From Gammaproteobacteria bacterium (GTDB lineage Bacteria; Pseudomonadota; Gammaproteobacteria; WOZS01), in the NCBI GenBank assembly GCA_011620135.1, contig WOZS01000011.1, positions 15,183 through 79,182 on the forward strand: a DNA stretch of 64,000 nucleotides. Reading direction: 5' to 3'. Positions within the stretch are counted from its first letter, which is position 1; each line of letters opens with the position of its first letter. Position numbers and translations under genes: made by a program. Below, piece by piece: positions 2,360 to 16,713 of this stretch. Below the pieces are notes generated by a model. The model was not told the origin of the DNA. It did not search any database and saw nothing but the letters and a program-made list of their open reading frames with translations.

Positions 2360-2436
2360 TGGGGTGAACGATGGGATTTGAACCCACGACCGCCGGAGCC
2401 ACAATCCGGAGCTCTACCAGCTGAGCTACGTCCACC
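2360..2436 (-). tRNA. tRNA-His (anticodon GTG)
   Basis: The reverse complement reads GGTGGACGTAGCTCAGCTGGTAGAGCTCCGGATTGTGGCTCCGGCGGTCGTGGGTTCAAATCCCATCGTTCACCCCA. It has the extra G-1 paired to C73, the anticodon loop TTGTGGC, the GGTTCAAATCC T-arm and an encoded CCA. It closely resembles E. coli tRNA-His. Confidence 0.85.
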
Positions 2437-4019: not shown

Positions 4020-4661
4020 ATGACCCGGCACGATACCTCAGGGCACCAAGTGCTGGAGCAGGGCCTTGCTGCTATGGGCCTTGCCCTGGAAGAGCAGGCC
4101 CGTTTTGGGCTGGTGCTGTTTGCAGAAGAATTGCAGCGCTTTGCCGGCAGTTACAGTCTGATCTCCGCGTCATCGCGCCAGGAAGTGGTGCAGCGCCATG
4201 TGCTGGATGCCCTGAGCATCCTGCCGAACCTTCAGGGCAAGACCATCCTCGACCTGGGTTGCGGGCCGGGCCTGCCGGGTCTGCCCCTGGCCATCGCCGA
4301 TGCCAGGCGACACTATGTGCTGTTGGATCGCAGTGAGAAGAAAACCAGGCTGGTGCGCCACATGCTGCGCCGCCTCGCACTGCCTCATGTGCGCTGCGTG
4401 GTTCTGGAGGCCGGGCGCTTCGCGGGGCATCATGACACGGTCGTCACCCGCGCTTTTGGCAACCTGGCCAGCGTGGTTGCGGCCTGCGATCATCTGCTGG
4501 CCCCTGGGGGTCGGCTTGTGTTGATGCAGGGCCAGGCGAGGCAGGAACAGGCGCTGCCCCATTACACATTGGAGCGTCTCGCCGCGCTGCGGGTGCCTGG
4601 CGTGGCAGCGTCCCGGCATGTGGCGCTGTGGCGCAAGGAGGAGAGACCATGGGACGGGTGA
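4020..4661 (+). CDS. rsmG: 16S rRNA (guanine527-N7)-methyltransferase
   Basis: GidB-like, with the SAM-binding motif LDLGCGPGLPGLPLAI. Its start codon abuts the prpD stop (TAGATG). It sits upstream of parA-parB. Confidence 0.85.
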   Translation: MTRHDTSGHQVLEQGLAAMGLALEEQARFGLVLFAEELQRFAGSYSLISASSRQEVVQRHVLDALSILPNLQGKTILDLGCGPGLPGLPLAIADARRHYVLLDRSEKKTRLVRHMLRRLALPHVRCVVLEAGRFAGHHDTVVTRAFGNLASVVAACDHLLAPGGRLVLMQGQARQEQALPHYTLERLAALRVPGVAASRHVALWRKEERPWDG

Positions 4662-5440
4662 TCGCCATTGCCAACCAAAAAGGAGGGGTGGGCAAGACCA
4701 CCACCAGCATCAGTCTGGCAGCGGGCCTTGCCAGGCTGGAGCAGCGCGTGTTGCTGGCAGACCTGGACCCCCAGGGCAACGCCACCACGGGTTCTGGGGT
4801 GGGCAAGCAGGCTATCGGCAACTCCAGCCTGGAGGTGCTCCTGGGTACGGCAAGCATCACAGACGCCCTGTTGCAGGGTCTGCCCGGGGGGTATGACCTG
4901 CTGCCCGGCAATGGCGCGCTCACTGCCGCCGAGGTGGCCCTGCTGGGGGAGGATGGCGGGCAGCTGCGGCTGCGCCAGGCGTTGCAGACCGTGCGTGGCC
5001 GGTATGAGCAGATCATCCTGGACTGCCCGCCGTCGCTCAGTATGCTGACAGTCAACGCCCTGGCAGCTGCCGATGGCGTCCTGGTGCCCATCCAGTGCGA
5101 ATACTATGCCCTGGAAGGGCTCTCGGCGCTGCTGGAGACCGTGGAGCGTATTCGCGGCACACTCAACCCCACGCTCGGCATCGATGGCTTCCTGCGTACC
5201 ATGTTCGATGGCCGCAACTACCTGGCCCGGGATGTCTCGGCTCAGCTTGAGGCCCACTTCGGCGCCCAGGTGCTGGCCACCCTGATCCCCCGCAATGTAC
5301 GTCTTGCCGAGGCCCCCAGCCATGGTCTGCCCATCTTTCAATACGATCCTTTGTCCAGGGGAGCCCTGGCCCATGCTGCCCTGGCTCGCGAGGTCCTGCA
5401 GCGCCAGGGCATTGGTCTGCCCGAGCAGGAGATGGCCTGA
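4649..5440 (+). CDS. parA: chromosome partitioning ATPase ParA/Soj
   Basis: Deviant Walker A motif IANQKGGVGKTTT. Start is the internal ATG at 4649 (MGRVIAIANQKGG), which overlaps the rsmG end by 13 nt. Confidence 0.85.
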   Translation: MGRVIAIANQKGGVGKTTTSISLAAGLARLEQRVLLADLDPQGNATTGSGVGKQAIGNSSLEVLLGTASITDALLQGLPGGYDLLPGNGALTAAEVALLGEDGGQLRLRQALQTVRGRYEQIILDCPPSLSMLTVNALAAADGVLVPIQCEYYALEGLSALLETVERIRGTLNPTLGIDGFLRTMFDGRNYLARDVSAQLEAHFGAQVLATLIPRNVRLAEAPSHGLPIFQYDPLSRGALAHAALAREVLQRQGIGLPEQEMA

Positions 5441-6498: not shown

Positions 6499-7650
6499 AT
6501 GATCGTTGGTCTGCCTGGCGAGCAACGTGCCGGCGAGCAGCGGGTAGCTCTGTTGCCCGAGACAGCTGCGGACTTGGTCAAGGCCGGCTTCCAGATCCTG
6601 GTGGCCCAGGGCGCTGGATGGGGCGCGCTGGTGGATGATGCCGCCTATGTGCAGGCCGGTGCCGTGGTGACAAGCCGGGAAGACGTGCTGGGGCGCGCCG
6701 CTATCCTGCTGTGGGTGCAGCCCGGGGACGCCGATCTCTCGAGCCTCGAGCGGGGACAGGTGGGCATCGGTTTCCTTGACCCCTTGCGCCAGGCATCCCG
6801 CCTGGCGGCGGCTGCAGCCACAGGAGCCATATGGCTTGCCCTGGAGCTGGTGCCCCGTACCACCAAGGCGCAGTGCGCCGATGCGCTCTCGGCCATGGCC
6901 ACGCTGGCCGGCTACAAGGCGGTGTTGCTGGCCGCCAATCACCTGCCGCGCGTGTTTCCGTTGCTGATGACGGCAGCCGGCACCCTTTTGCCGGCGCGGG
7001 TCTTCGTGCTGGGTGCCGGCGTGGCCGGCCTGCAGGCCATCGCTACCGCCAGGCGTCTGGGGGCCAGGGTATCGGCCTATGATGTGCGTCCCCAGGTGCG
7101 GGAGCAGGTGGCGAGCGTTGGCGGGCGTTTCGTGGAGCTGCCATTGGCTGCTGCAGCCGGTGAGGGTGGCTATGCCAGGGCCATGGATGAGACCTACTAC
7201 CAGCGCCAGCGCGAGCTCCTGGCCGAGGTGCTGCAGGCAAGCGAGGTGGTCATCACCACAGCCCAGGTGCCCGACGGACCAGCCCCCCTGTTGCTGACCC
7301 GCGCCATGATGGAGGCCATGCCCAAGGGATCCGTGGTGGTGGACCTCGCCGCCAACCAGGGTGGCAATTGTGAGGACGTGCAGCCCGACCAGGTGGTCAT
7401 GGTGGGCGCAACCACGCTGATCGGGGCTGGCAACCTGCCCGGCACAGTCCCTGCGCATGCCAGCCAGATGCTGGGGCGCAACATGCAGGCCATCCTTTCT
7501 TTCCTGGCACCCCGAGGCGAGCTGATCATGGATGACGATGTGATCCAGGCCATGGCGGTGACCCGGGATGGCGCGGTGGTGCACCCAGGTGTGACCCAGC
7601 GCCTGCAGGAGGCTTATGGAACCGGCCTGGATCAGGAGGAGCGCCCATGA
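6499..7650 (+). CDS. pntAA: NAD(P) transhydrogenase subunit alpha part 1 (dI, NAD(H)-binding)
   Basis: Alanine-dehydrogenase/PNT domain with a GAGVAGLQA Rossmann motif. Layout is the three-gene split pnt type. Confidence 0.85.
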   Translation: MIVGLPGEQRAGEQRVALLPETAADLVKAGFQILVAQGAGWGALVDDAAYVQAGAVVTSREDVLGRAAILLWVQPGDADLSSLERGQVGIGFLDPLRQASRLAAAAATGAIWLALELVPRTTKAQCADALSAMATLAGYKAVLLAANHLPRVFPLLMTAAGTLLPARVFVLGAGVAGLQAIATARRLGARVSAYDVRPQVREQVASVGGRFVELPLAAAAGEGGYARAMDETYYQRQRELLAEVLQASEVVITTAQVPDGPAPLLLTRAMMEAMPKGSVVVDLAANQGGNCEDVQPDQVVMVGATTLIGAGNLPGTVPAHASQMLGRNMQAILSFLAPRGELIMDDDVIQAMAVTRDGAVVHPGVTQRLQEAYGTGLDQEERP

Positions 7651-7931
7651 GCATCTGGATGGCCTTGCTGACCATCTTCGTCCTGGCCACGCTGCTGGGA
7701 TTCCTGGTCATTGCCAAGGTGCCGCCCAACCTGCACACGCCCCTGATGTCCGGATCGAATGCCATTTCCGGCATCACCATCGTGGGTGCGCTGCTGGCAG
7801 CCGGTGGGGGCAGGGACTGGTTCAGCCAGGCGCTGGGTATCCTGGCGCTCATCATGGCCACGGTCAATGTGGCGGGTGGTTTCCTGGTGACCCACCGTAT
7901 GCTGCGCCTGTTTCGCAAGCCTCGTTCTTGA
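7647..7931 (+). CDS. pntAB: NAD(P) transhydrogenase subunit alpha part 2 (membrane)
   Basis: 94 aa with three predicted TM helices. ATGA overlap with pntAA. Confidence 0.8.
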   Translation: MSIWMALLTIFVLATLLGFLVIAKVPPNLHTPLMSGSNAISGITIVGALLAAGGGRDWFSQALGILALIMATVNVAGGFLVTHRMLRLFRKPRS

Positions 7932-7956
7932 CCAACCAAGGGAATAAAGTCGCCTC

Positions 7957-9330
7957 ATGCAGGATTGGGTCGCACTGGGTTATCTGTTGGGTGGCGTGCT
8001 GTTTGTCTGCGGTCTGATGGGCCTGTCGCAGCCACGCCGGGCTGTGGCCGGCAACGGTCTTGGCGCGCTGGGCATGCTTTTGTGCGTGGTGGTGACCCTG
8101 CTGGATCGGGGTATGGTGCATTGGTGGGGCGTGCTGGGCGGGCTGCTGGTGGGCAGCGCTGCTGGCGCCATCCTGGCCCAAAGGGTAGCCATGACCGCCA
8201 TGCCGCAGATGGTGGGCTTGTTCAATGGCCTGGGGGGCACTGCCTCGGCGCTGGTGGCCTGGGCCGAGCTGCATCAGGCCATGGCCCCCACGCCACTGGC
8301 GTTCCGCTTGGCCGGAGGCCTGTCTGTCCTCATCGGTGCCGTGACGCTCTCGGGCAGCCTGGTAGCTGCCGCCAAGCTGCATGGCCTCGTGGGCGAACGT
8401 CCCTGGCATCTGCCCCAGGAACAGTTGCTCAAGGCGCTGACGTTGGTGGCGGCGTTGGCGCTGGTGGGCGCCTTTCCCTTCCTGGCGGACCCAGCCATGC
8501 TGGTACCACCTCTCATGGTGATGGCATTGCTGCTGGGGGTGCAGATCACGGTGGCCATCGGCGGGGCGGACATGCCTGTCGTGATCGCACTGATGAACGC
8601 CTACTCCGGCCTTGCCGGGGCCGCCGCAGGCTTCATGCTGGCCAACTCGGCGCTGGTGATCGCCGGCGCCCTGGTGGGCACCTCCGGGCTCATCCTGACG
8701 CAGATCATGTGCCGCGCCATGAACCGCTCCATGGGCAATGTCCTGCTGGGAGGTTTTGGCGAACCGCAGGCCCAAGCCGATGCCGATGCGGTCTATGGCG
8801 GGCGCGTCAAGGCCACCTCTGCAGCAGAGATCGCCTTGCTGCTCGATGGGGCGCAGCAGGTCATGGTGGTGCCGGGCTATGGCCTGGCGGTGGCCCAGGC
8901 CCAGTATGCGTTGCGCGACCTGGTGCATTTCCTGGAAGGGCGCGGCGTGCAGGTGAGCTTTGCCATCCATCCCGTGGCAGGCCGCATGCCGGGCCACATG
9001 AACGTGCTGCTGGCGGAGGTGGACATTCCCTACGAGCAGCTGCTGGAACTGGGCCAGGCCAACGCCCAGCTGTCCTTGGTGGATGTGGCCATTGTCATCG
9101 GTGCCAACGATGTGGTCAATCCCAGCGCCAATGACCCATCGAGCCCCATTGCCGGCATGGCCATCGTGGAGGTTTCCCAGGCGCAGCTGGTGGTGGTGAT
9201 CAAGCGCAGCCTCTCGCCCGGCTTTGCGGGCATTCCCAATCCATTGTTTGCCATGGACAATACCCTGATGTTCTTTGCCGATGCCAAGGAAGGCTTGGGT
9301 GCGATCCTTGCAGCCCTCAAGACAGGGTGA
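7957..9330 (+). CDS. pntB: NAD(P) transhydrogenase subunit beta
   Basis: 457 aa. N-terminal polytopic membrane domain plus a C-terminal dIII NADP(H) domain containing GYGLAVAQAQ. Confidence 0.85.
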   Translation: MQDWVALGYLLGGVLFVCGLMGLSQPRRAVAGNGLGALGMLLCVVVTLLDRGMVHWWGVLGGLLVGSAAGAILAQRVAMTAMPQMVGLFNGLGGTASALVAWAELHQAMAPTPLAFRLAGGLSVLIGAVTLSGSLVAAAKLHGLVGERPWHLPQEQLLKALTLVAALALVGAFPFLADPAMLVPPLMVMALLLGVQITVAIGGADMPVVIALMNAYSGLAGAAAGFMLANSALVIAGALVGTSGLILTQIMCRAMNRSMGNVLLGGFGEPQAQADADAVYGGRVKATSAAEIALLLDGAQQVMVVPGYGLAVAQAQYALRDLVHFLEGRGVQVSFAIHPVAGRMPGHMNVLLAEVDIPYEQLLELGQANAQLSLVDVAIVIGANDVVNPSANDPSSPIAGMAIVEVSQAQLVVVIKRSLSPGFAGIPNPLFAMDNTLMFFADAKEGLGAILAALKTG

Positions 9331-10063
9331 GGCGGGCACACAACCTGCCCCGGTAGCCCGCCTGGAAGGGGTGGGTAAGCGCTATGGCCGCTTAGAGGCG
9401 CTGCACGCCGTTGACCTCGCGTTTTTCCCAGGCGAGGTGGTGGGGTTGCTGGGGCCCAATGGGGCAGGTAAGTCCACCATTCTCGGGCTGCTGGCCGGGC
9501 TGCTCATCCCCAGCAGCGGCGCGGTGCAGGTTCTGAGCCGTACGCCTCGCGAGAGCCGCCACGCCTTGGCCCATCTGCCAGAAGGGCTCCATGGCTGGAT
9601 GACGCCGCGCCATCTGCTGCGGCTCATGGGCGGGCTATACCCCAATTTTTCGGCCCAGCGCTACGCCGAGCTGCTGGACTTTCTGCAGGTTCCAGAAAGG
9701 CGCTCGGCGGCCATGTCCAAGGGCCAGCAGGCACGGTTGCGCCTAGCTGTGACGCTGGCGGTGCAAGCCGAGCTCTATCTGCTGGATGAACCGCTGGCCA
9801 ATATCGACCTGCTGGCCCGGGAGACCATCCTGCAGGCGTTGTTTCGCCACCGCAATGGCAGAGCCTGCTACCTGCTGGCCACCCACGAGATTGCCGAGGC
9901 GGGCAGCTACATGGATCGGGTGGTGATGATCCATGGGGGACGTGTCATCCAGGATCATTCGGTTGCCGAATTGATGCAACAGGGGCTGGGTGTGGAGGAG
10001 GCCTACCGGCAGGCCATGGGGGCGGGGCTGGCCGGCCCCGCCTTGCCCCAGCCCATGCCATGA
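9275..10063 (+). CDS. ABC transporter ATP-binding protein
   Basis: Walker A GPNGAGKST, a degenerate signature MSKGQQ and Walker B LYLLDEP. The annotated ATG overlaps the pntB end by 56 nt, so the true start is uncertain. ATGA-coupled to the downstream permease. Confidence 0.65.
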   Translation: MPMPRKAWVRSLQPSRQGEAGTQPAPVARLEGVGKRYGRLEALHAVDLAFFPGEVVGLLGPNGAGKSTILGLLAGLLIPSSGAVQVLSRTPRESRHALAHLPEGLHGWMTPRHLLRLMGGLYPNFSAQRYAELLDFLQVPERRSAAMSKGQQARLRLAVTLAVQAELYLLDEPLANIDLLARETILQALFRHRNGRACYLLATHEIAEAGSYMDRVVMIHGGRVIQDHSVAELMQQGLGVEEAYRQAMGAGLAGPALPQPMP

Positions 10064-11679
10064 GCCTGCCTCTCCAGCGCCTGGGTGTCCTGGGTCGGGG
10101 TCTTCTGGCGGTGCTGCTGTGGCAATGGCAGCAGCAGCGCGGCTGGCCCATGGCATGCCTGGTGGCCCTGGCTGGCGTTGCTGTGGCCAGTGCTGCAGTC
10201 GATGCCACATGGCTTGCGACCGATGCCCTGAGCGGGGCGCTGTGGTTTGTCACGCCATGGCTCTCCTGGATGCTGCTGGCGCTGCTGCTGCAGGGTTGGC
10301 TGCTGGCCTATCGCGGGCCCCGCCTCGACCGTGAGGCCGGATGCACGTTGCTCTTCATGGCTCCTGTGCCGGGGTGGCTTGTGCTGCTGGGCCGGCTTGC
10401 AGGCGGCATCGTGCCGCTTGCTTGCCTTGCGCTGGTCATCCAGGTGGCCGATGGCATGGCGGCTCGCTCCGTTGGTCTGCAGCCGGCCTGGGGGGGCAGT
10501 CTGTGGTGGCTTGCGTGGGGCCTGGTGACGATGCTGGCGCCGGCGCTGGCTTTGCTTGCCGCGTTGGGTGCCTGGGGGATGGCGCAAGGAGGCCGGCACC
10601 ATGCGCGGCAGGTGGTGCTGCTCGTGTTGCTGGTCACCGCTGGGGCGATGATCCGCCTGGTTTTGTCCTGGATCATGGCCGAGCCTGCCCCAGGAGTCGC
10701 CGACGGGCAGGTTGCCAGGCTGGCCTGGTATCTGCGCCGCTGGCCCGGGATGGTGCCACGGGCAGATGCAGGGTCTGGGGTGCCTGCCTTTCCAGGGTTA
10801 CCGCTGTGGCCGGTGGCATGCAGCCTGGCGGCAACCTGCATGCTGCTGGGCATGGCCTGGTGGGGATGGCGCCGGGCCGAGTTCGCAACCCAGCGCAGCA
10901 CTGATGTCATCCAGGAAGACCCGGGTAGCGCCATCGTACGCCACTGGCGGCCGGATGATGGTGGGCGCTGGCGTAGTCCAGCGCTGGCGCTGCTGTGGCT
11001 GCAGGGCCGGCTGTGGCGCCAGGGCGTCATGGCGCTGGGCCTTGTTCTGGCACCCCTGGCGGTGATGGTGGCCCTGTTGCAGGGTTGGCCAGGGCTTGCC
11101 CCCGATATGGTCATGGCCAATGGCCTGTTGCTGGCCATGGTCGGCATGGTGGTGAGTGCGTTGTGGACGGCCGGCTCTGGGTGGCCCATCATGGGGTTGC
11201 CTGGCCTGCCGCCCCAGGGGTTGGCCTGGTGGTTTTCCTGGGGCCTGCTGCTGACGCTGTTCCATGGGGCGTGTGCCTGGGCGGGTTTTTGCCTGGGCGT
11301 GTGGTGGACGTTGCATGGGCTCGGCGTGACCTTCCAGGATCACGTGCTCTGGGTGTTGTTCGGCTATGGCTGCGTGGTGGCGGCCTGGCCGCTTGGTGGC
11401 TCGATGGCCTGTGGGACTGCCATGCTGGGCCATGCCCCCCGCAGGCTGCGTCTATCTGCCGGGGTATTGCTGGCTGCAGCGGGCGCGCTGCTGATTGCCG
11501 CATCCTGGCGGTTGTCCTATCGGCTGATGCCGCCTTGGACCGTGGTGCTGGGCAGAATGGAGTCCCTGGAGTTGCGTTTTGTGTGGCAAGGTCTGCCCCA
11601 GGAACCATTCTGGATCATGCTGGCAGCAGGGCTGCTGGCATGGCCGGGGCGTTGTTGGCTGTTGGATCGCAGGCCATGA
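10060..11679 (+). CDS. large polytopic membrane protein (putative ABC permease component)
   Basis: 539 aa, Trp/Leu/Ala-rich with many predicted TM helices. Translationally coupled (ATGA) to the ATPase upstream and to the next gene. No recognisable family from sequence. Confidence 0.5.
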   Translation: MSLPLQRLGVLGRGLLAVLLWQWQQQRGWPMACLVALAGVAVASAAVDATWLATDALSGALWFVTPWLSWMLLALLLQGWLLAYRGPRLDREAGCTLLFMAPVPGWLVLLGRLAGGIVPLACLALVIQVADGMAARSVGLQPAWGGSLWWLAWGLVTMLAPALALLAALGAWGMAQGGRHHARQVVLLVLLVTAGAMIRLVLSWIMAEPAPGVADGQVARLAWYLRRWPGMVPRADAGSGVPAFPGLPLWPVACSLAATCMLLGMAWWGWRRAEFATQRSTDVIQEDPGSAIVRHWRPDDGGRWRSPALALLWLQGRLWRQGVMALGLVLAPLAVMVALLQGWPGLAPDMVMANGLLLAMVGMVVSALWTAGSGWPIMGLPGLPPQGLAWWFSWGLLLTLFHGACAWAGFCLGVWWTLHGLGVTFQDHVLWVLFGYGCVVAAWPLGGSMACGTAMLGHAPRRLRLSAGVLLAAAGALLIAASWRLSYRLMPPWTVVLGRMESLELRFVWQGLPQEPFWIMLAAGLLAWPGRCWLLDRRP

Positions 11680-12672: not shown

Positions 12673-12710
12673 TCTGATCCGAAGGGCAACATCTGATCCG
12701 GAGGACAACA
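12673..12710 (+). repeat. 19-bp tandem direct repeat spanning the egtB ribosome-binding site
   Basis: TCTGATCCGAAGGGCAACA followed directly by TCTGATCCGGAGGACAACA (17 of 19 identical), 2 nt before the egtB ATG. Confidence 0.6.
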
Positions 12711-12711
12711 G

Positions 12712-13986
12712 ATGGCAGAACACATATCGAGGAGAGCCTCGGAACAGGCCAGCATCTGCCTGCTGGAGCAGTATCAGGCGGTCCGCAGCCGCTCGACGGC
12801 CCTGTGCGAGCCGCTGGCGGTGGAGGACATGGTCATCCAGGCCATGGTCGAGGTGAGTCCGCCCAAGTGGCATCTGGCGCATACCAGTTGGTTCTTCGAG
12901 ACCTTCCTGCTCAAGCCCCATCTGCCTGACTATCGTGTCTTTCATCCCGGTTTTGCCTTTCTGTTCAATTCCTACTATGAGCAGGTGGGCCCCTTCTTCC
13001 CAAGATCACAACGGGGGCTGATCTCCAGGCCCAGCGTGGCCGAGGTGATGGCCTACAGGCACCATGTGGATACGGCCATGGCGCGCCTGCTCACGCAGGC
13101 CGATGCTGCACGGCTTGCCGAACTGCATCCTGTGCTCCTGGTGGGCCTGAACCATGAGCAGCAGCACCAGGAATTGCTGCTGATGGATGTGAAGTACAAC
13201 TTTTTCATCAATCCCTTGCATCCTGTCTATGCCAGGCCGTCACCAGTGGCAGCTTCCGCCGCGCTGCAGCAGGGGCATGCCAGCTATGAGGGTGGCATTT
13301 TCCCCATCGGCAATGATGGTCACGAAAGCTTTGCCTACGACAACGAGGGGCCGCGTCACCAGGTGGTGGTGGAGCCGTTTCGGCTGGCAAAAGGGCTGGT
13401 GACCTGTGGCGAGTACCTCGAGTTCATCGAGGCAGGGGGGTACCGTGACCCGGTCTTGTGGATGTCCGATGGCTGGGCTGCGGTGCAGCGTCACGGTTGG
13501 TGCGCGCCGCTGTACTGGGAACGGTCCGATGAGGGCTGGCAGGTGTTCACGCTCCATGGCATGCGTGCTGTGGACCCCCAGGCCCCCGTGGGTCACCTGA
13601 GCTGGTATGAGGCCGATGCCTATGCCCGCTTCGCAGGCAGCCGCCTGCCCACAGAGGCCGAATGGGAGCTGGCCGCCACGGCAGACAACGCCCGGCAGGA
13701 GCTGACCGAGACCCAGGCAGATCGCCTCGAGCCCCCTGTTGGGGGCATGCGCTTCTTTGGCGCGCTGTGGCAATGGACGGCAAGCCCCTACATGCCCTAT
13801 CCCCGCTATCGGCCGGTGGCCGGCGCGCTTGGTGAGTACAACGGCAAGTTCATGGCCGGCCAGATGGTGTTGCGGGGCTCGGCCTGCATCACGCCCCAGG
13901 GTCATGCCCGGGTGAGCTATCGCAACTTCTTTCCGTTCGAGGCGCGCTGGATGTACGGTGGCGTGCGCCTGGCCTGGGATGACTGA
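12712..13986 (+). CDS. egtB: ergothioneine biosynthesis sulfoxide synthase EgtB-like (DinB_2 + FGE-sulfatase domains)
   Basis: N-terminal DinB/YfiT-like region with His ligands (HLAHTSWFFE, GLNHEQQHQEL). C-terminal FGE-like domain (GALWQWT, RGSACITP). Directly upstream of an EgtD-like methyltransferase. Confidence 0.7.
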   Translation: MAEHISRRASEQASICLLEQYQAVRSRSTALCEPLAVEDMVIQAMVEVSPPKWHLAHTSWFFETFLLKPHLPDYRVFHPGFAFLFNSYYEQVGPFFPRSQRGLISRPSVAEVMAYRHHVDTAMARLLTQADAARLAELHPVLLVGLNHEQQHQELLLMDVKYNFFINPLHPVYARPSPVAASAALQQGHASYEGGIFPIGNDGHESFAYDNEGPRHQVVVEPFRLAKGLVTCGEYLEFIEAGGYRDPVLWMSDGWAAVQRHGWCAPLYWERSDEGWQVFTLHGMRAVDPQAPVGHLSWYEADAYARFAGSRLPTEAEWELAATADNARQELTETQADRLEPPVGGMRFFGALWQWTASPYMPYPRYRPVAGALGEYNGKFMAGQMVLRGSACITPQGHARVSYRNFFPFEARWMYGGVRLAWDD

Positions 13987-14038
13987 ACGCATCAAGCAAG
14001 CAAAGCAATCAAGAACAACTAACAACTAAGGAGCAAGC

Positions 14039-14995
14039 ATGAACATTCCACAAGCGTTCTACGATCTGGCCCAGCAGGAAGACGACTTCCTGGCCGCAGT
14101 CTGGCAGGGATTGGGCAGTACGCCCAAGACCCTGCCGTGTCGCTTTTTCTATGACCAGCGCGGCAGTGCGTTGTTCGATGCCATCTGCGACCTGGATGAG
14201 TACTATCTCACCAGCACCGAGCAAGCCATCCTGCAGGACTGTGCCGCAGACATCGCAAGCCTTGTCGGCCCCACAGGCGTGCTGCTGGAATACGGCAGCG
14301 GCAGCAGCATCAAGACCCGTCTCCTGCTGGATGCACTCTCGCCACGGCTCTACATGCCCATCGACATCTCCAGGGACCACATGCTGGCAGCCTGCGCGGC
14401 TTTGGGTCGGGATTATCCCCATTTGCAGGTGCGCGCGGTATGCGCCGATTATTCCAAACCCTTTGCGCTGCCTGCGGTGGCGTCCTGGGGGCGCACGGTT
14501 GCCTTTTTCCCAGGCTCCAGTATCGGCAATTTTGACCATCGCGAGGCGGTGGCCTTCCTGCGCCAGGTCTGTCGCCAGCTGGGTTCCGGGGATGCCCTTG
14601 TGCTGGGCGTGGACCTGCAGAAGGACCCAGCCATCCTGGAGGCGGCCTACAACGATGCCCAGGGGGTCACTGCTGCGTTCAACCTGAACCTGCTGGCCCG
14701 CATCAACCGCGAGCTTCAGGCGGATTTCGATCTCGACGCCTTCGAGCACCGGGCCTGGTACAACGCTGAGGCAGCAAGGATGGAGATGCATCTTATGAGC
14801 ACCAAGCCCCAGCATGCGACGGTGGCTGGCCGCATGTTTGCCTTCCGACAGGGCGAGACCATTCATACCGAAAACAGCCATAAGTTCAACCACACCCTCA
14901 TCAACCAGCTGGCCTTCCAGGCTGGCTTGCAGGTCCGCATGGTCTGGCGCGACCCCGCTATGCTGTTTGCCGTGTACTGCCTGACCAAGCCCTGA
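14039..14995 (+). CDS. egtD: L-histidine N-alpha-methyltransferase EgtD-like
   Basis: Contains PCRFFYDQRGSALFDAICDLDEYYLTSTEQAIL and LLEYGSGSSIKTRLLL, characteristic of EgtD and its SAM-methyltransferase relatives. Confidence 0.7.
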   Translation: MNIPQAFYDLAQQEDDFLAAVWQGLGSTPKTLPCRFFYDQRGSALFDAICDLDEYYLTSTEQAILQDCAADIASLVGPTGVLLEYGSGSSIKTRLLLDALSPRLYMPIDISRDHMLAACAALGRDYPHLQVRAVCADYSKPFALPAVASWGRTVAFFPGSSIGNFDHREAVAFLRQVCRQLGSGDALVLGVDLQKDPAILEAAYNDAQGVTAAFNLNLLARINRELQADFDLDAFEHRAWYNAEAARMEMHLMSTKPQHATVAGRMFAFRQGETIHTENSHKFNHTLINQLAFQAGLQVRMVWRDPAMLFAVYCLTKP

Positions 14996-15018: not shown

Positions 15019-15573
15019 TTAGGGGATCTCCGCAGCACGGCTGGTGGTGGCCAGCTGGGCCACATAGTCGGCGTGCTCCTGCTGCATGCGGAGGTAGACA
15101 GTCCGGCTCGCCTGGTGGAGAGCGCCTTGCAATCCCAGTTGTTCATCGGCCATGCGGACGATCAGACTGTTGGGCCAGCAGGGGAAACGCACGGCCATCA
15201 GCTGCTCTGCGGCCTCCTGCGGGCTTGCGCCCTGGAGCACCATGAACAGCAGGGCGGTAGCCGTGGAGCGGGACATGCCGGCATGGCAGTGCACCAGCAC
15301 ATGGCCCTGGTCGTCCAAGGAGGAACCCACCTCGATCAACCGTTCCACATCTTGAGGCGTGGGTGACATGGCCAGGTTCGGATCGACCACATCGAAGAAA
15401 CTGAAGCGATGGCGTTGGGGGATGCGCTCGAGGATGTCGGGCGTTTCGTAGCCTGGGTCCAGCAGGGAGACCACGGTGGTGGTGGCAGGGGTCAAGCGCT
15501 CTGCCAGTTCCGCAAGCCCGCAGATGGCAAGGCGCTGCCACAGGGGCAGCCTGGCTGATGGTATGGTGGACAT
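15019..15573 (-). CDS. protein-tyrosine/dual-specificity phosphatase-like protein
   Basis: Catalytic P-loop HCHAGMSRST (CX5R). Start chosen at MSTIPSARL; the ORF extends to 15633. Confidence 0.6.
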   Translation of the reverse strand: MSTIPSARLPLWQRLAICGLAELAERLTPATTTVVSLLDPGYETPDILERIPQRHRFSFFDVVDPNLAMSPTPQDVERLIEVGSSLDDQGHVLVHCHAGMSRSTATALLFMVLQGASPQEAAEQLMAVRFPCWPNSLIVRMADEQLGLQGALHQASRTVYLRMQQEHADYVAQLATTSRAAEIP

Positions 15574-15717
15574 GCCGCCTATGATACCACCGTTGCAACC
15601 CGTGCATTGCCATACCATTTCGGTATCACGCATGCCTTCGGGTCGTTGTGACAGGGCCAGGGAGCAACGGGAAAAAGAGGATGCATCAGAAAAGCTAAGA
15701 AAAGCACGTGGAACTGG

Positions 15718-15978
15718 TTGCGCTTATTTGGGGCAGGGTGTTTCGGTATGTTGGGCACCTCCCTGGCGCTGGCCGAAGGCTATGTGGACTGGCCGGACGA
15801 CACCAAGGTGATCGATGTGAGCGCCAGTGCGGGCATCATCCATGTGATCGGTCAGGATGAGGACGATGCGCTATATACCCTGGCCATTCCCGAGAGCCTG
15901 GCTCATTCGCTCAAGGTGCAGGCCATGCCCAAGGGGCCCCTGAATCGCCATGAAGGGGTTTTTCGACTGGCCCAGTGA
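15718..15978 (+). CDS. small secreted repeat protein (copy 1, with signal peptide); probably frameshifted
   Basis: N-terminal signal-like segment MRLFGAGCFGMLGTSLALA. Carries the repeat YVDWPDDTKVIDVSASAGIIHVIGQDEDDALYTLAIPE. Confidence 0.4.
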   Translation: MRLFGAGCFGMLGTSLALAEGYVDWPDDTKVIDVSASAGIIHVIGQDEDDALYTLAIPESLAHSLKVQAMPKGPLNRHEGVFRLAQ

Positions 15979-16093
15979 TACCAGGATCATCGGTGCTGCA
16001 GCCGATGAGGGGGTATTGTTCGTGGTGGGCCAGGAAGGCAAAGATGCGCTGTATATCGTGCGCATCACAGAAGATAAAACAGATCACCGCTAG
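15950..16093 (+). pseudogene. second copy of the same ~38-aa repeat in the +1 frame (likely the 3' part of a frameshifted gene)
   Basis: MKGFFDWPSDTRIIGAAADEGVLFVVGQEGKDALYIVRITE is about 50% identical to repeat 1. The frame changes across a GGGGTTTTT run. Confidence 0.35.
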
Positions 16094-16191
16094 CAGGAAC
16101 GCAGGAAGCATCATGTGCCCATCCCATGTCGCGACCGCCATCCTCACCGTTTTGCCTTTAGCGTTTTACCGTGGCGCAGAGCACGTGCGCG

Positions 16192-16713
16192 TCATGCCCT
16201 GACATGGCGGCCCATGGCCGCCAGGATGCCCAGCAGTAGGCGTTCGGGCGGCGGTGGACAGCCGGGAATGAATACATCCACGGGAATCACCTGGTCCACG
16301 CCGCCCAGGCTCGCATAGCTCGTCCCGAACAGCCCGCCGTTGCAGGCACAATCGCCTGCTGCGATCACCAGGCGCGGCTCGGCCATGGCATCCCAGGTGC
16401 GCAGCAAGGCCTCGGCCATGTGTCTCGAGACCGGGCCTGTTACCAGCAGGGCATCGGCATGACGAGGCGAGGCCACGAATCGCACCCCGAAGCGTTCCAG
16501 GTCATGGTAGGGGTTTTCCAGGGCCCCGATCTCCAGCTCGCAGCCATTGCACGAACCGGCGTCCACCTGCCGGATGGCAAGGCTTGCCCTGCACTGGGCA
16601 TCCAGCATGCGCCTGACCGCGATGCCGGCCTGTTCCAGGGCATGGGCATCCAGTTGCGGTGGGGCGTCGGTGCAGGTTGTGTTGCTGAGGATGGTGCGCA
16701 GGATGCGGATCAT
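16192..16713 (-). CDS. NuoB-like small subunit of Ehr/group-4-hydrogenase-like complex
   Basis: Fe-S ligand motifs GSCNGCE, GDCACNGG and PGCPP. This is the last gene of a six-gene complex-I-like cluster. Confidence 0.8.
   Translation of the reverse strand: MIRILRTILSNTTCTDAPPQLDAHALEQAGIAVRRMLDAQCRASLAIRQVDAGSCNGCELEIGALENPYHDLERFGVRFVASPRHADALLVTGPVSRHMAEALLRTWDAMAEPRLVIAAGDCACNGGLFGTSYASLGGVDQVIPVDVFIPGCPPPPERLLLGILAAMGRHVRA

Follow-up and report, generated by a model that had tools for sequence, protein, structure and literature searches.

Do two small neighbouring reading frames, each encoding one copy of the same repeat, represent two genes or the pieces of one? The question is raised by a locus within a 64,000-nucleotide stretch of DNA, which we call the window. 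Two open reading frames (ORFs) follow each other on its plus strand, one in frame 1 (15718 to 15978; 86 amino acids from a TTG) and one in frame 2 (15950 to 16093; 47 amino acids from an ATG). An earlier note read them as a single secreted protein with two repeats of about 38 amino acids, interrupted by a frameshift in a run of G and T, and named sequencing error, pseudogene formation, slipped-strand phase variation and programmed frameshifting as possible reasons. Both ORFs are indeed present in different frames, and the likeness of their repeats (approximately 38–40 amino acids) withstands a statistical test: 18 of 40 residues (45%) are identical in an ungapped BLASTP alignment, with 70% positives and an E-value of 1E-13. 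Repeat 1 (YVDWPDDTKVIDVSASAGIIHVIGQDEDDALYTLAIPE; 15781 to 15894) is in frame 1 and is followed by the inter-repeat linker SLAHSLKVQAMPKGPL (15895 to 15942), whose final codons are still read correctly in that frame. The frame-2 segment (15944 to 16093, plus strand) comprises a conserved IAMKG motif, repeat 2 (FFDWPSDTRIIGAAADEGVLFVVGQEGKDALYIVRITE; 15959 to 16072) and a tail, DKTDHR, with a stop codon at 16091 to 16093. The G/T run itself, GGGGTTTTT, occupies 15955 to 15963 and encodes Gly-Phe-Phe. A promoter and terminator consensus scan of positions 15500 to 16300 returned no sites.

A search of 5.8 billion proteins with the fused sequence returned six clusters. Four of these (P0001–P0004), all from other metagenomes, are complete proteins of 133–135 amino acids that are 78–80% identical to the fused query over 98–100% of its length. 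Each is encoded by a single ORF and has the same layout: a hydrophobic leader of approximately 30 amino acids, repeat 1, a linker of approximately 20 amino acids, repeat 2, and a tail of the form DKxDHR. Of the two remaining clusters, P0005 (76 amino acids) is the window's own truncated ORF, read from the ATG at 15748, and P0006 (109 amino acids) is a version of the family truncated in a different way. Syntenic intact copies were found on contigs L003–L008, L089 and L091; on the 1.9-kb contig L090, the synteny covers the immediate flanking genes only. The gene order in the intact loci is that of the window, namely egtB, egtD, a phosphatase gene (minus strand), the small gene (plus strand) and a hydrogenase operon (minus strand). 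When the mature region is read as one frame, dN/dS is 0.06–0.19, whether intact copies are compared with one another or with the repaired window copy. The intact single-ORF homologues, taken with the low dN/dS values, indicate that the ancestral state of the locus is one protein-coding gene under purifying selection, and the proposal that a frameshift divided a single gene, encoding a leader and two repeats, is borne out. Among the orthologous loci compared, no relative has two separate ORFs divided at the window's position; the only other disrupted copy carries a different insertion (see below).

Where was the frame broken? A one-base deletion in the G/T run does formally join the two frames, as the earlier note had pointed out, but the run is not the site of the break. 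In the DNA alignment, the window and its closest counterpart (L001) read CCCCTGAATCGCC where the nearest relative (L002) reads CCCCTG-ATCGCC. The context is thus CCCCTG-A-ATCGCC, with AA in place of a single A, the extra base being 15943 or 15944 (plus strand), and CTG ATC becomes CTG AAT C. The window and L001 carry the extra A; L002, L003, L007, L089, L090 and L091 lack it. It lies 11–12 nucleotides upstream of the run. The invariant I/V-A-M-K-G that precedes repeat 2 is already in frame 2 in the window. In all seven aligned sequences the run forms nine in-frame columns (GGGGTTTTT, GGGTTTTTT or GGGCTTTTT). The sole variation among them is a synonymous one, in the third base of the Gly codon (GGG, GGT or GGC), which is followed by TTT TTC. 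The homologues without the extra base, together with an IAMKG motif that is back in frame 2 before the run begins, place the lesion upstream of it, and the alignment identifies the real lesion as the one extra A at 15943/15944. Reading on in frame 1 gives 11 wrong residues (NRHEGVFRLAQ) and ends at a premature TGA (15976 to 15978). An indel that is not a multiple of three and a premature stop, as expected of a frameshift pseudogene, are both found here. The extra A also creates a TGA (15941 to 15943) in the downstream frame. The point at which two frames can formally be fused may thus differ from the true lesion, which was located solely by comparison with orthologues.

Is the extra A real? 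If it were a sequencing or assembly error, the true genome would have one A and the gene would be intact except for an odd start. The window apparently comes from a metagenome assembly of low depth (approximately 7x overall), and a one-base indel is a well-known kind of artefact. The run SRR10568503, from which L001 was independently assembled by Logan, belongs to a set of three Illumina HiSeq libraries made from soil contaminated with crude oil at Wietze (PMC7242671); the authors of that study assembled with metaSPAdes and reported an average metagenome depth of approximately 7x (PMC7242671). L001 equals the window at 1660 of 1661 positions, the lone mismatch (15532) lying outside the gene, and it has the same extra A. 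Since a different assembler gives the same sequence, an assembler artefact is ruled out; a consensus built on a rare variant could still explain the agreement, as the reads behind L001 are probably part of those behind the window. Two further points tell against an error, namely that indel errors are rare in Illumina HiSeq data and that the A-to-AA site is no homopolymer.

The second relative, L002 (run SRR28876213), comes from an unrelated sample of the same species and is 98.15% identical to the window over 7 kb. It lacks the extra A and has a frameshift of its own in the same gene, a one-nucleotide C insertion (CC to CCC) after window position 15980, 37 nucleotides downstream of the window's lesion. 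Over the 7 kb the two sequences differ by a 3-nucleotide in-frame indel in egtB, a 10-nucleotide indel past the phosphatase stop codon and the two one-nucleotide indels. The latter are the only indels within genes whose length is not a multiple of three; both are in the small gene, one per lineage. The six flanking genes are intact in the window and in L002, free of internal stops, with pN/pS values of 0.09–0.69. Within the small gene, the nonsynonymous and synonymous differences between the two copies amount to 6.5 (Nd) and 1.5 (Sd), from only eight substitutions, and the changes in L002 strike residues that all intact copies share (Y to C, D to G and D to G). These changes are a hint of relaxed constraint after disruption. 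Because separate lesions are confined to one gene, lie at non-homopolymer sites and occur in Illumina data, we regard them as probably real decay, and a sequencing or assembly error as an improbable source of the window's frameshift.

The extent first given to the gene also needs revision, as the gene begins earlier than had been claimed. Frame 1 offers no start codon (ATG, GTG or TTG) before the TTG at 15718, and the residues TWNW, encoded upstream of this codon, align with the leaders of the homologues. A remnant of the probable ancestral start is found in a third frame (frame 0; 15681 to 15695, plus strand), where ATG CAT CAG AAA AGC (MHQKS) is followed directly by TAA. The remnant runs into a 10-nucleotide near-tandem duplication, TCAGAAAAGC|TAAGAAAAGC (15686 to 15705, plus strand; 9 of 10 positions identical), which is present in the window, L001 and L002; only 10 adjacent 10-mer repeats of this kind occur in the 64 kb. 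Its second copy (15696 to 15705) causes a +1 shift of frame and gives rise to the TAA stop (15696 to 15698). When the second copy is removed, the ATG at 15681 comes into frame and yields a 30-residue leader, MHQKSTWNWLRLFGAGCFGMLGTSLALAEG. This repaired leader has the same length as those of all four intact homologues, aligns with them ungapped with 11–17 identities in 30 residues, and, against three of the four, outscores the other repairs in global alignment. A one-nucleotide deletion in the A-run, also considered as the repair, has been superseded, since the 10-nucleotide model is free of gaps and scores better against those three of four homologues.

We therefore propose, with moderate confidence, that the duplication would be the N-terminal lesion. 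Other possible events are a change of ATG to ATC at 15685 or a one-nucleotide insertion of T; one DNA alignment pairs the homologues' ATG with the ATC at 15685 and so does not follow the duplication model. Under any of these, the window, L001 and L002 have no canonical start codon in frame where the ancestral one lay, and since the 5′ lesion is common to the three, it is older than their split. What remains of the leader, TWNWLRLFGAGCFGMLGTSLALA (15706 to 15774, plus strand), is in frame 1 and offers two possible replacement starts, the TTG at 15718 and the ATG at 15748. The TTG could supply a workable 20-amino-acid leader, MRLFGAGCFGMLGTSLALA, so the 5′ lesion alone may not have been inactivating. 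The three segments of the gene now lie in three different frames.

The pair of one-nucleotide insertions brings to mind the contingency loci of Neisseria, Haemophilus and Campylobacter, which switch by slipped-strand mispairing. Such loci have long homopolymer or short tandem repeat tracts, typically of seven or more units, whose length varies between isolates. Our locus is similar in that the gene presumably encodes a surface or exported protein and that its on and off frames differ between populations; the two independent insertions fall within 40 nucleotides of each other in two populations, and the G4T5 run is near. In contrast to these loci, the run is constant in length in seven sequences, and the indels are instead in runs of one or two nucleotides (A to AA, CC to CCC), which are too short for efficient slippage. 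There is no tandem simple-sequence repeat at the locus, and the longest runs are G4 and T5. Slippage at GGGGTTTTT as the cause of the frame break is thus not supported, the lesion being the A-to-AA change upstream of it, and we consider a phase-variable gene extremely improbable.

Could the ribosome instead repair the message by shifting frame? A +1 slip anywhere in 15944 to 15975 restores the frame of repeat 2. In particular, the tRNA-Phe could slip from UUU to UUC at GUU UUU CGA, where U-UUU-C permits perfect re-pairing and CGA is a rare codon (3.2 per 1000 codons). The rescued product would read ...NRHEGVF-DWPSDTR... with both repeats, and its trans-frame peptide would be HEGVFDWPSDTR. This arrangement is reminiscent of prfB (release factor 2), where overlapping frames can likewise be joined by +1 at a U UUU C re-pairing site followed by a slow codon. 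At sites of the prfB type, which are preserved from species to species, a Shine-Dalgarno-like stimulator lies upstream and the shift takes place at an in-frame stop. The window's shift, however, is absent from all homologues, from the intact ones as well as from the 98%-identical L002, and reading the sequence by eye revealed no stimulator resembling a Shine-Dalgarno motif ahead of the run. Moreover, the product would have NRHEGV in place of the invariant IAMKGF, and slippage could not make up for the lost ancestral start. With the run invariant and in frame, programmed frameshifting at GGGGTTTTT is not supported either; any slippage at U-UUU-CGA would be incidental and low-level, and a frameshift that rescues the fused protein seems to us highly unlikely.

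A further reading is that the gene has undergone a functional fission, so that ORF1 (leader and repeat 1) and ORF2 (repeat 2) are two working genes whose products perhaps form a heterodimer. Both repeats are still open in the window copy, with their invariant residues undamaged. ORF2 starts with an ATG and overlaps ORF1 in the manner of coupled genes, and the Logan gene calls for L001 contain an ORF starting at the ATG at 15950. Against these points, all homologues have the Met of IAMKG at this ATG, as a conserved residue inside the protein rather than a start, and no Shine-Dalgarno motif was seen before it when the sequence was read by eye. The exact 47-amino-acid product is not on record as a called gene in the contig collection. 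The ORF2 product would have no leader while its partner would be exported, the stop codon of ORF1 is 26 nucleotides beyond the ATG, which is poor for re-initiation, and the split is not common to the nearest relative. Two functional genes are therefore very unlikely.

These findings suggest that the locus is probably a true frameshift pseudogene, or failing that an inactivated allele, of a gene for an exported protein of approximately 135 residues. Of the explanations offered by the earlier note, it is this one that the intact syntenic orthologues, the one-nucleotide insertion and the premature stop bear out; sequencing error is unlikely given the Illumina data, the non-homopolymer site, the agreeing Logan assembly and 7 kb that are otherwise free of frame breaks. 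We envisage the following course. An older 5′ lesion, shared with the nearest relative and most likely the 10-nucleotide tandem duplication at 15696 to 15705, would have removed the in-frame canonical start. Later, in the window's population, a single A would have been inserted in the linker. Translation would now exit repeat 1, read the 11 wrong residues and halt at the TGA at 15976 to 15978, and repeat 2 would be stranded in another frame behind an internal Met codon, with neither a ribosome-binding site nor a leader. That the protein was exported, that the lesions abolished its function, and what exactly happened at the N-terminus are points that we infer; the truncated one-repeat product could retain some activity.

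The locus has much in common with ordinary bacterial frameshift pseudogenes: intact syntenic orthologues, a one-nucleotide insertion with a premature stop 11 codons on, further damage at the 5′ end, separate disruption of the gene in a sister population and a slight sign of weakened constraint. It differs from them in nothing essential, except that the parent family here is unannotated and the copy is young. Its youth is indicated by the few differences from the intact consensus and by a dN/dS against intact homologues that is still low. It is tempting to hypothesize that loss of the gene was recurrent and favoured in two populations, or that leaky +1 slippage keeps a trace of the full-length protein, although we think either unlikely. 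If true, the gene would have worked from the TTG at 15718 until recently and then been knocked out twice, by one-nucleotide insertions 37 nucleotides apart; losing an orphan exported beta-repeat protein would have been favoured, e.g., because it was the target of phage, predators or competitors. On the preferred reading the locus is an ordinary decaying gene. The two "hypothetical proteins" should accordingly be annotated as one pseudogene (15681 to 16093), and neither slippery nor phase-variable behaviour should be ascribed to the G/T run.

What kind of protein has been lost? The repeat is not a recognized domain, as the earlier note had stated, and HMM and structure searches gave no significant curated match. 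A search of Pfam returned only a sub-threshold match to HTH_10, NCBIfam returned no match, and the best hit among PDB sequences (E = 0.07) was not significant. A profile (HMM) search of 1.84 billion representative proteins recovered the family itself and one other protein, P0016. We rejected P0016 as a homologue; its E-value of 9E-5 is inflated, since only a short GYLDW..EKII motif matches and is counted six times. P0016 has 549 amino acids in six nearly identical repeats of approximately 90 amino acids, each with SGYLDWDSGEKIIVV, similar to the stretch with which our own repeat opens, GYVDWPDDTKVIDV. Scans with the family alignment found no relative in the genome collection and none in the JGI metagenomes, and a cluster look-up returned the uninformative annotation "hypothetical protein" only. 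The best match to EgtD in the genome collection is 56% identical, so the clade is absent from that collection. With a handful of clusters among billions of proteins, the family is a very narrow, lineage-restricted orphan.

In the AlphaFold model of P0003, computed from a four-sequence input, each repeat is predicted to fold as a three-stranded beta meander. The overall pLDDT is 59.5; most of the repeats score 70–84 (76–84 by 10-residue block in repeat 1), and the leader and linker score less than 50. A Foldseek search with this model against PDB and BFVD gave nothing at E ≤ 0.001, and cyanovirin-N chains were among the best PDB matches. Cyanovirin-N also has approximately 100 mature residues, two sequence-similar beta-rich repeats and a leader. 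It gives no significant match in sequence or structure (Foldseek E of at least 0.019, TM 0.21–0.31), and with a model of moderate confidence the resemblance is one of outline only. Beyond annotation, the importance of the locus is small; the unrecognized two-repeat beta architecture could be a minor curiosity for structural genomics.

The leaders, inspected by eye, have a basic n-region, a hydrophobic core and an A-x-A motif (e.g., MNMRLWRRWLVRFVAGCLCMLGASVALA|DG in a homologue), and the predicted signal-peptidase site in the window, ALA|EG, follows position 15774. These features suggest that the protein would be exported via a Sec-type signal. A lipobox-like tripeptide with Cys also occurs in the leaders (VAGC, VAGC, LGSC and LGGC in P0001–P0004, GAGC in the window), and the A-x-A site follows 11–13 residues after this Cys. 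Members of the family might accordingly be lipoproteins and not substrates of signal peptidase I.

Next to the small gene, in divergent orientation, lies a DSP/PTP-like phosphatase gene (15019 to 15633, minus strand) with the CX5R motif HCHAGMSRS; its match to Pfam DSPc is below threshold (27.4 bits; cut-off 33.5). The two genes adjoin divergently in every recovered locus, and a functional link between them is possible on the strength of this arrangement, the one hint at function that the gene context gives. In L002, gene callers pick a 184-amino-acid form of the phosphatase. Right after the phosphatase stop, L002 has 10 extra bases (approximately 4262–4271) relative to window 15018/15019 (GTGATGGCGCTGTGATGGCT vs GTGATGGCT), which look like a further short tandem duplication of about the same length as that suggested for 15696 to 15705.

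Immediately upstream is an ergothioneine pair, EgtB-like and EgtD (12697 to 14995, plus strand), which is conserved in all related loci that reach upstream of the phosphatase. The EgtB-like protein has DinB_2 and FGE-sulfatase domains, as seen in the syntenic loci, and EgtD has a Methyltransf_33 domain (E = 2.8E-111). On the other side, an operon resembling those of group-4 membrane-bound [NiFe] hydrogenases or formate hydrogenlyases extends from 16192 to approximately 28000 (minus strand), as judged by its domain content (an Oxidored_q6 small subunit, a Complex1_49kDa/NiFeSe large subunit, Proton_antipo_M and NADHdh). The large subunit has 584 amino acids in the ORF list vs 511–512 in relatives, probably because an upstream TTG was taken as its start. 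Rfam and ARAGORN found a single RNA gene in the window, a tRNA-His with a GTG anticodon (2360 to 2435, minus strand), and no rRNA gene. In L089, two additional ORFs (146 and 112 amino acids, no Pfam domain; 4374–5255) lie between egtD and the phosphatase gene, and two PF04185 phosphoesterase genes (547 and 976 amino acids; 6862–11439) lie between the small gene and the hydrogenase operon.
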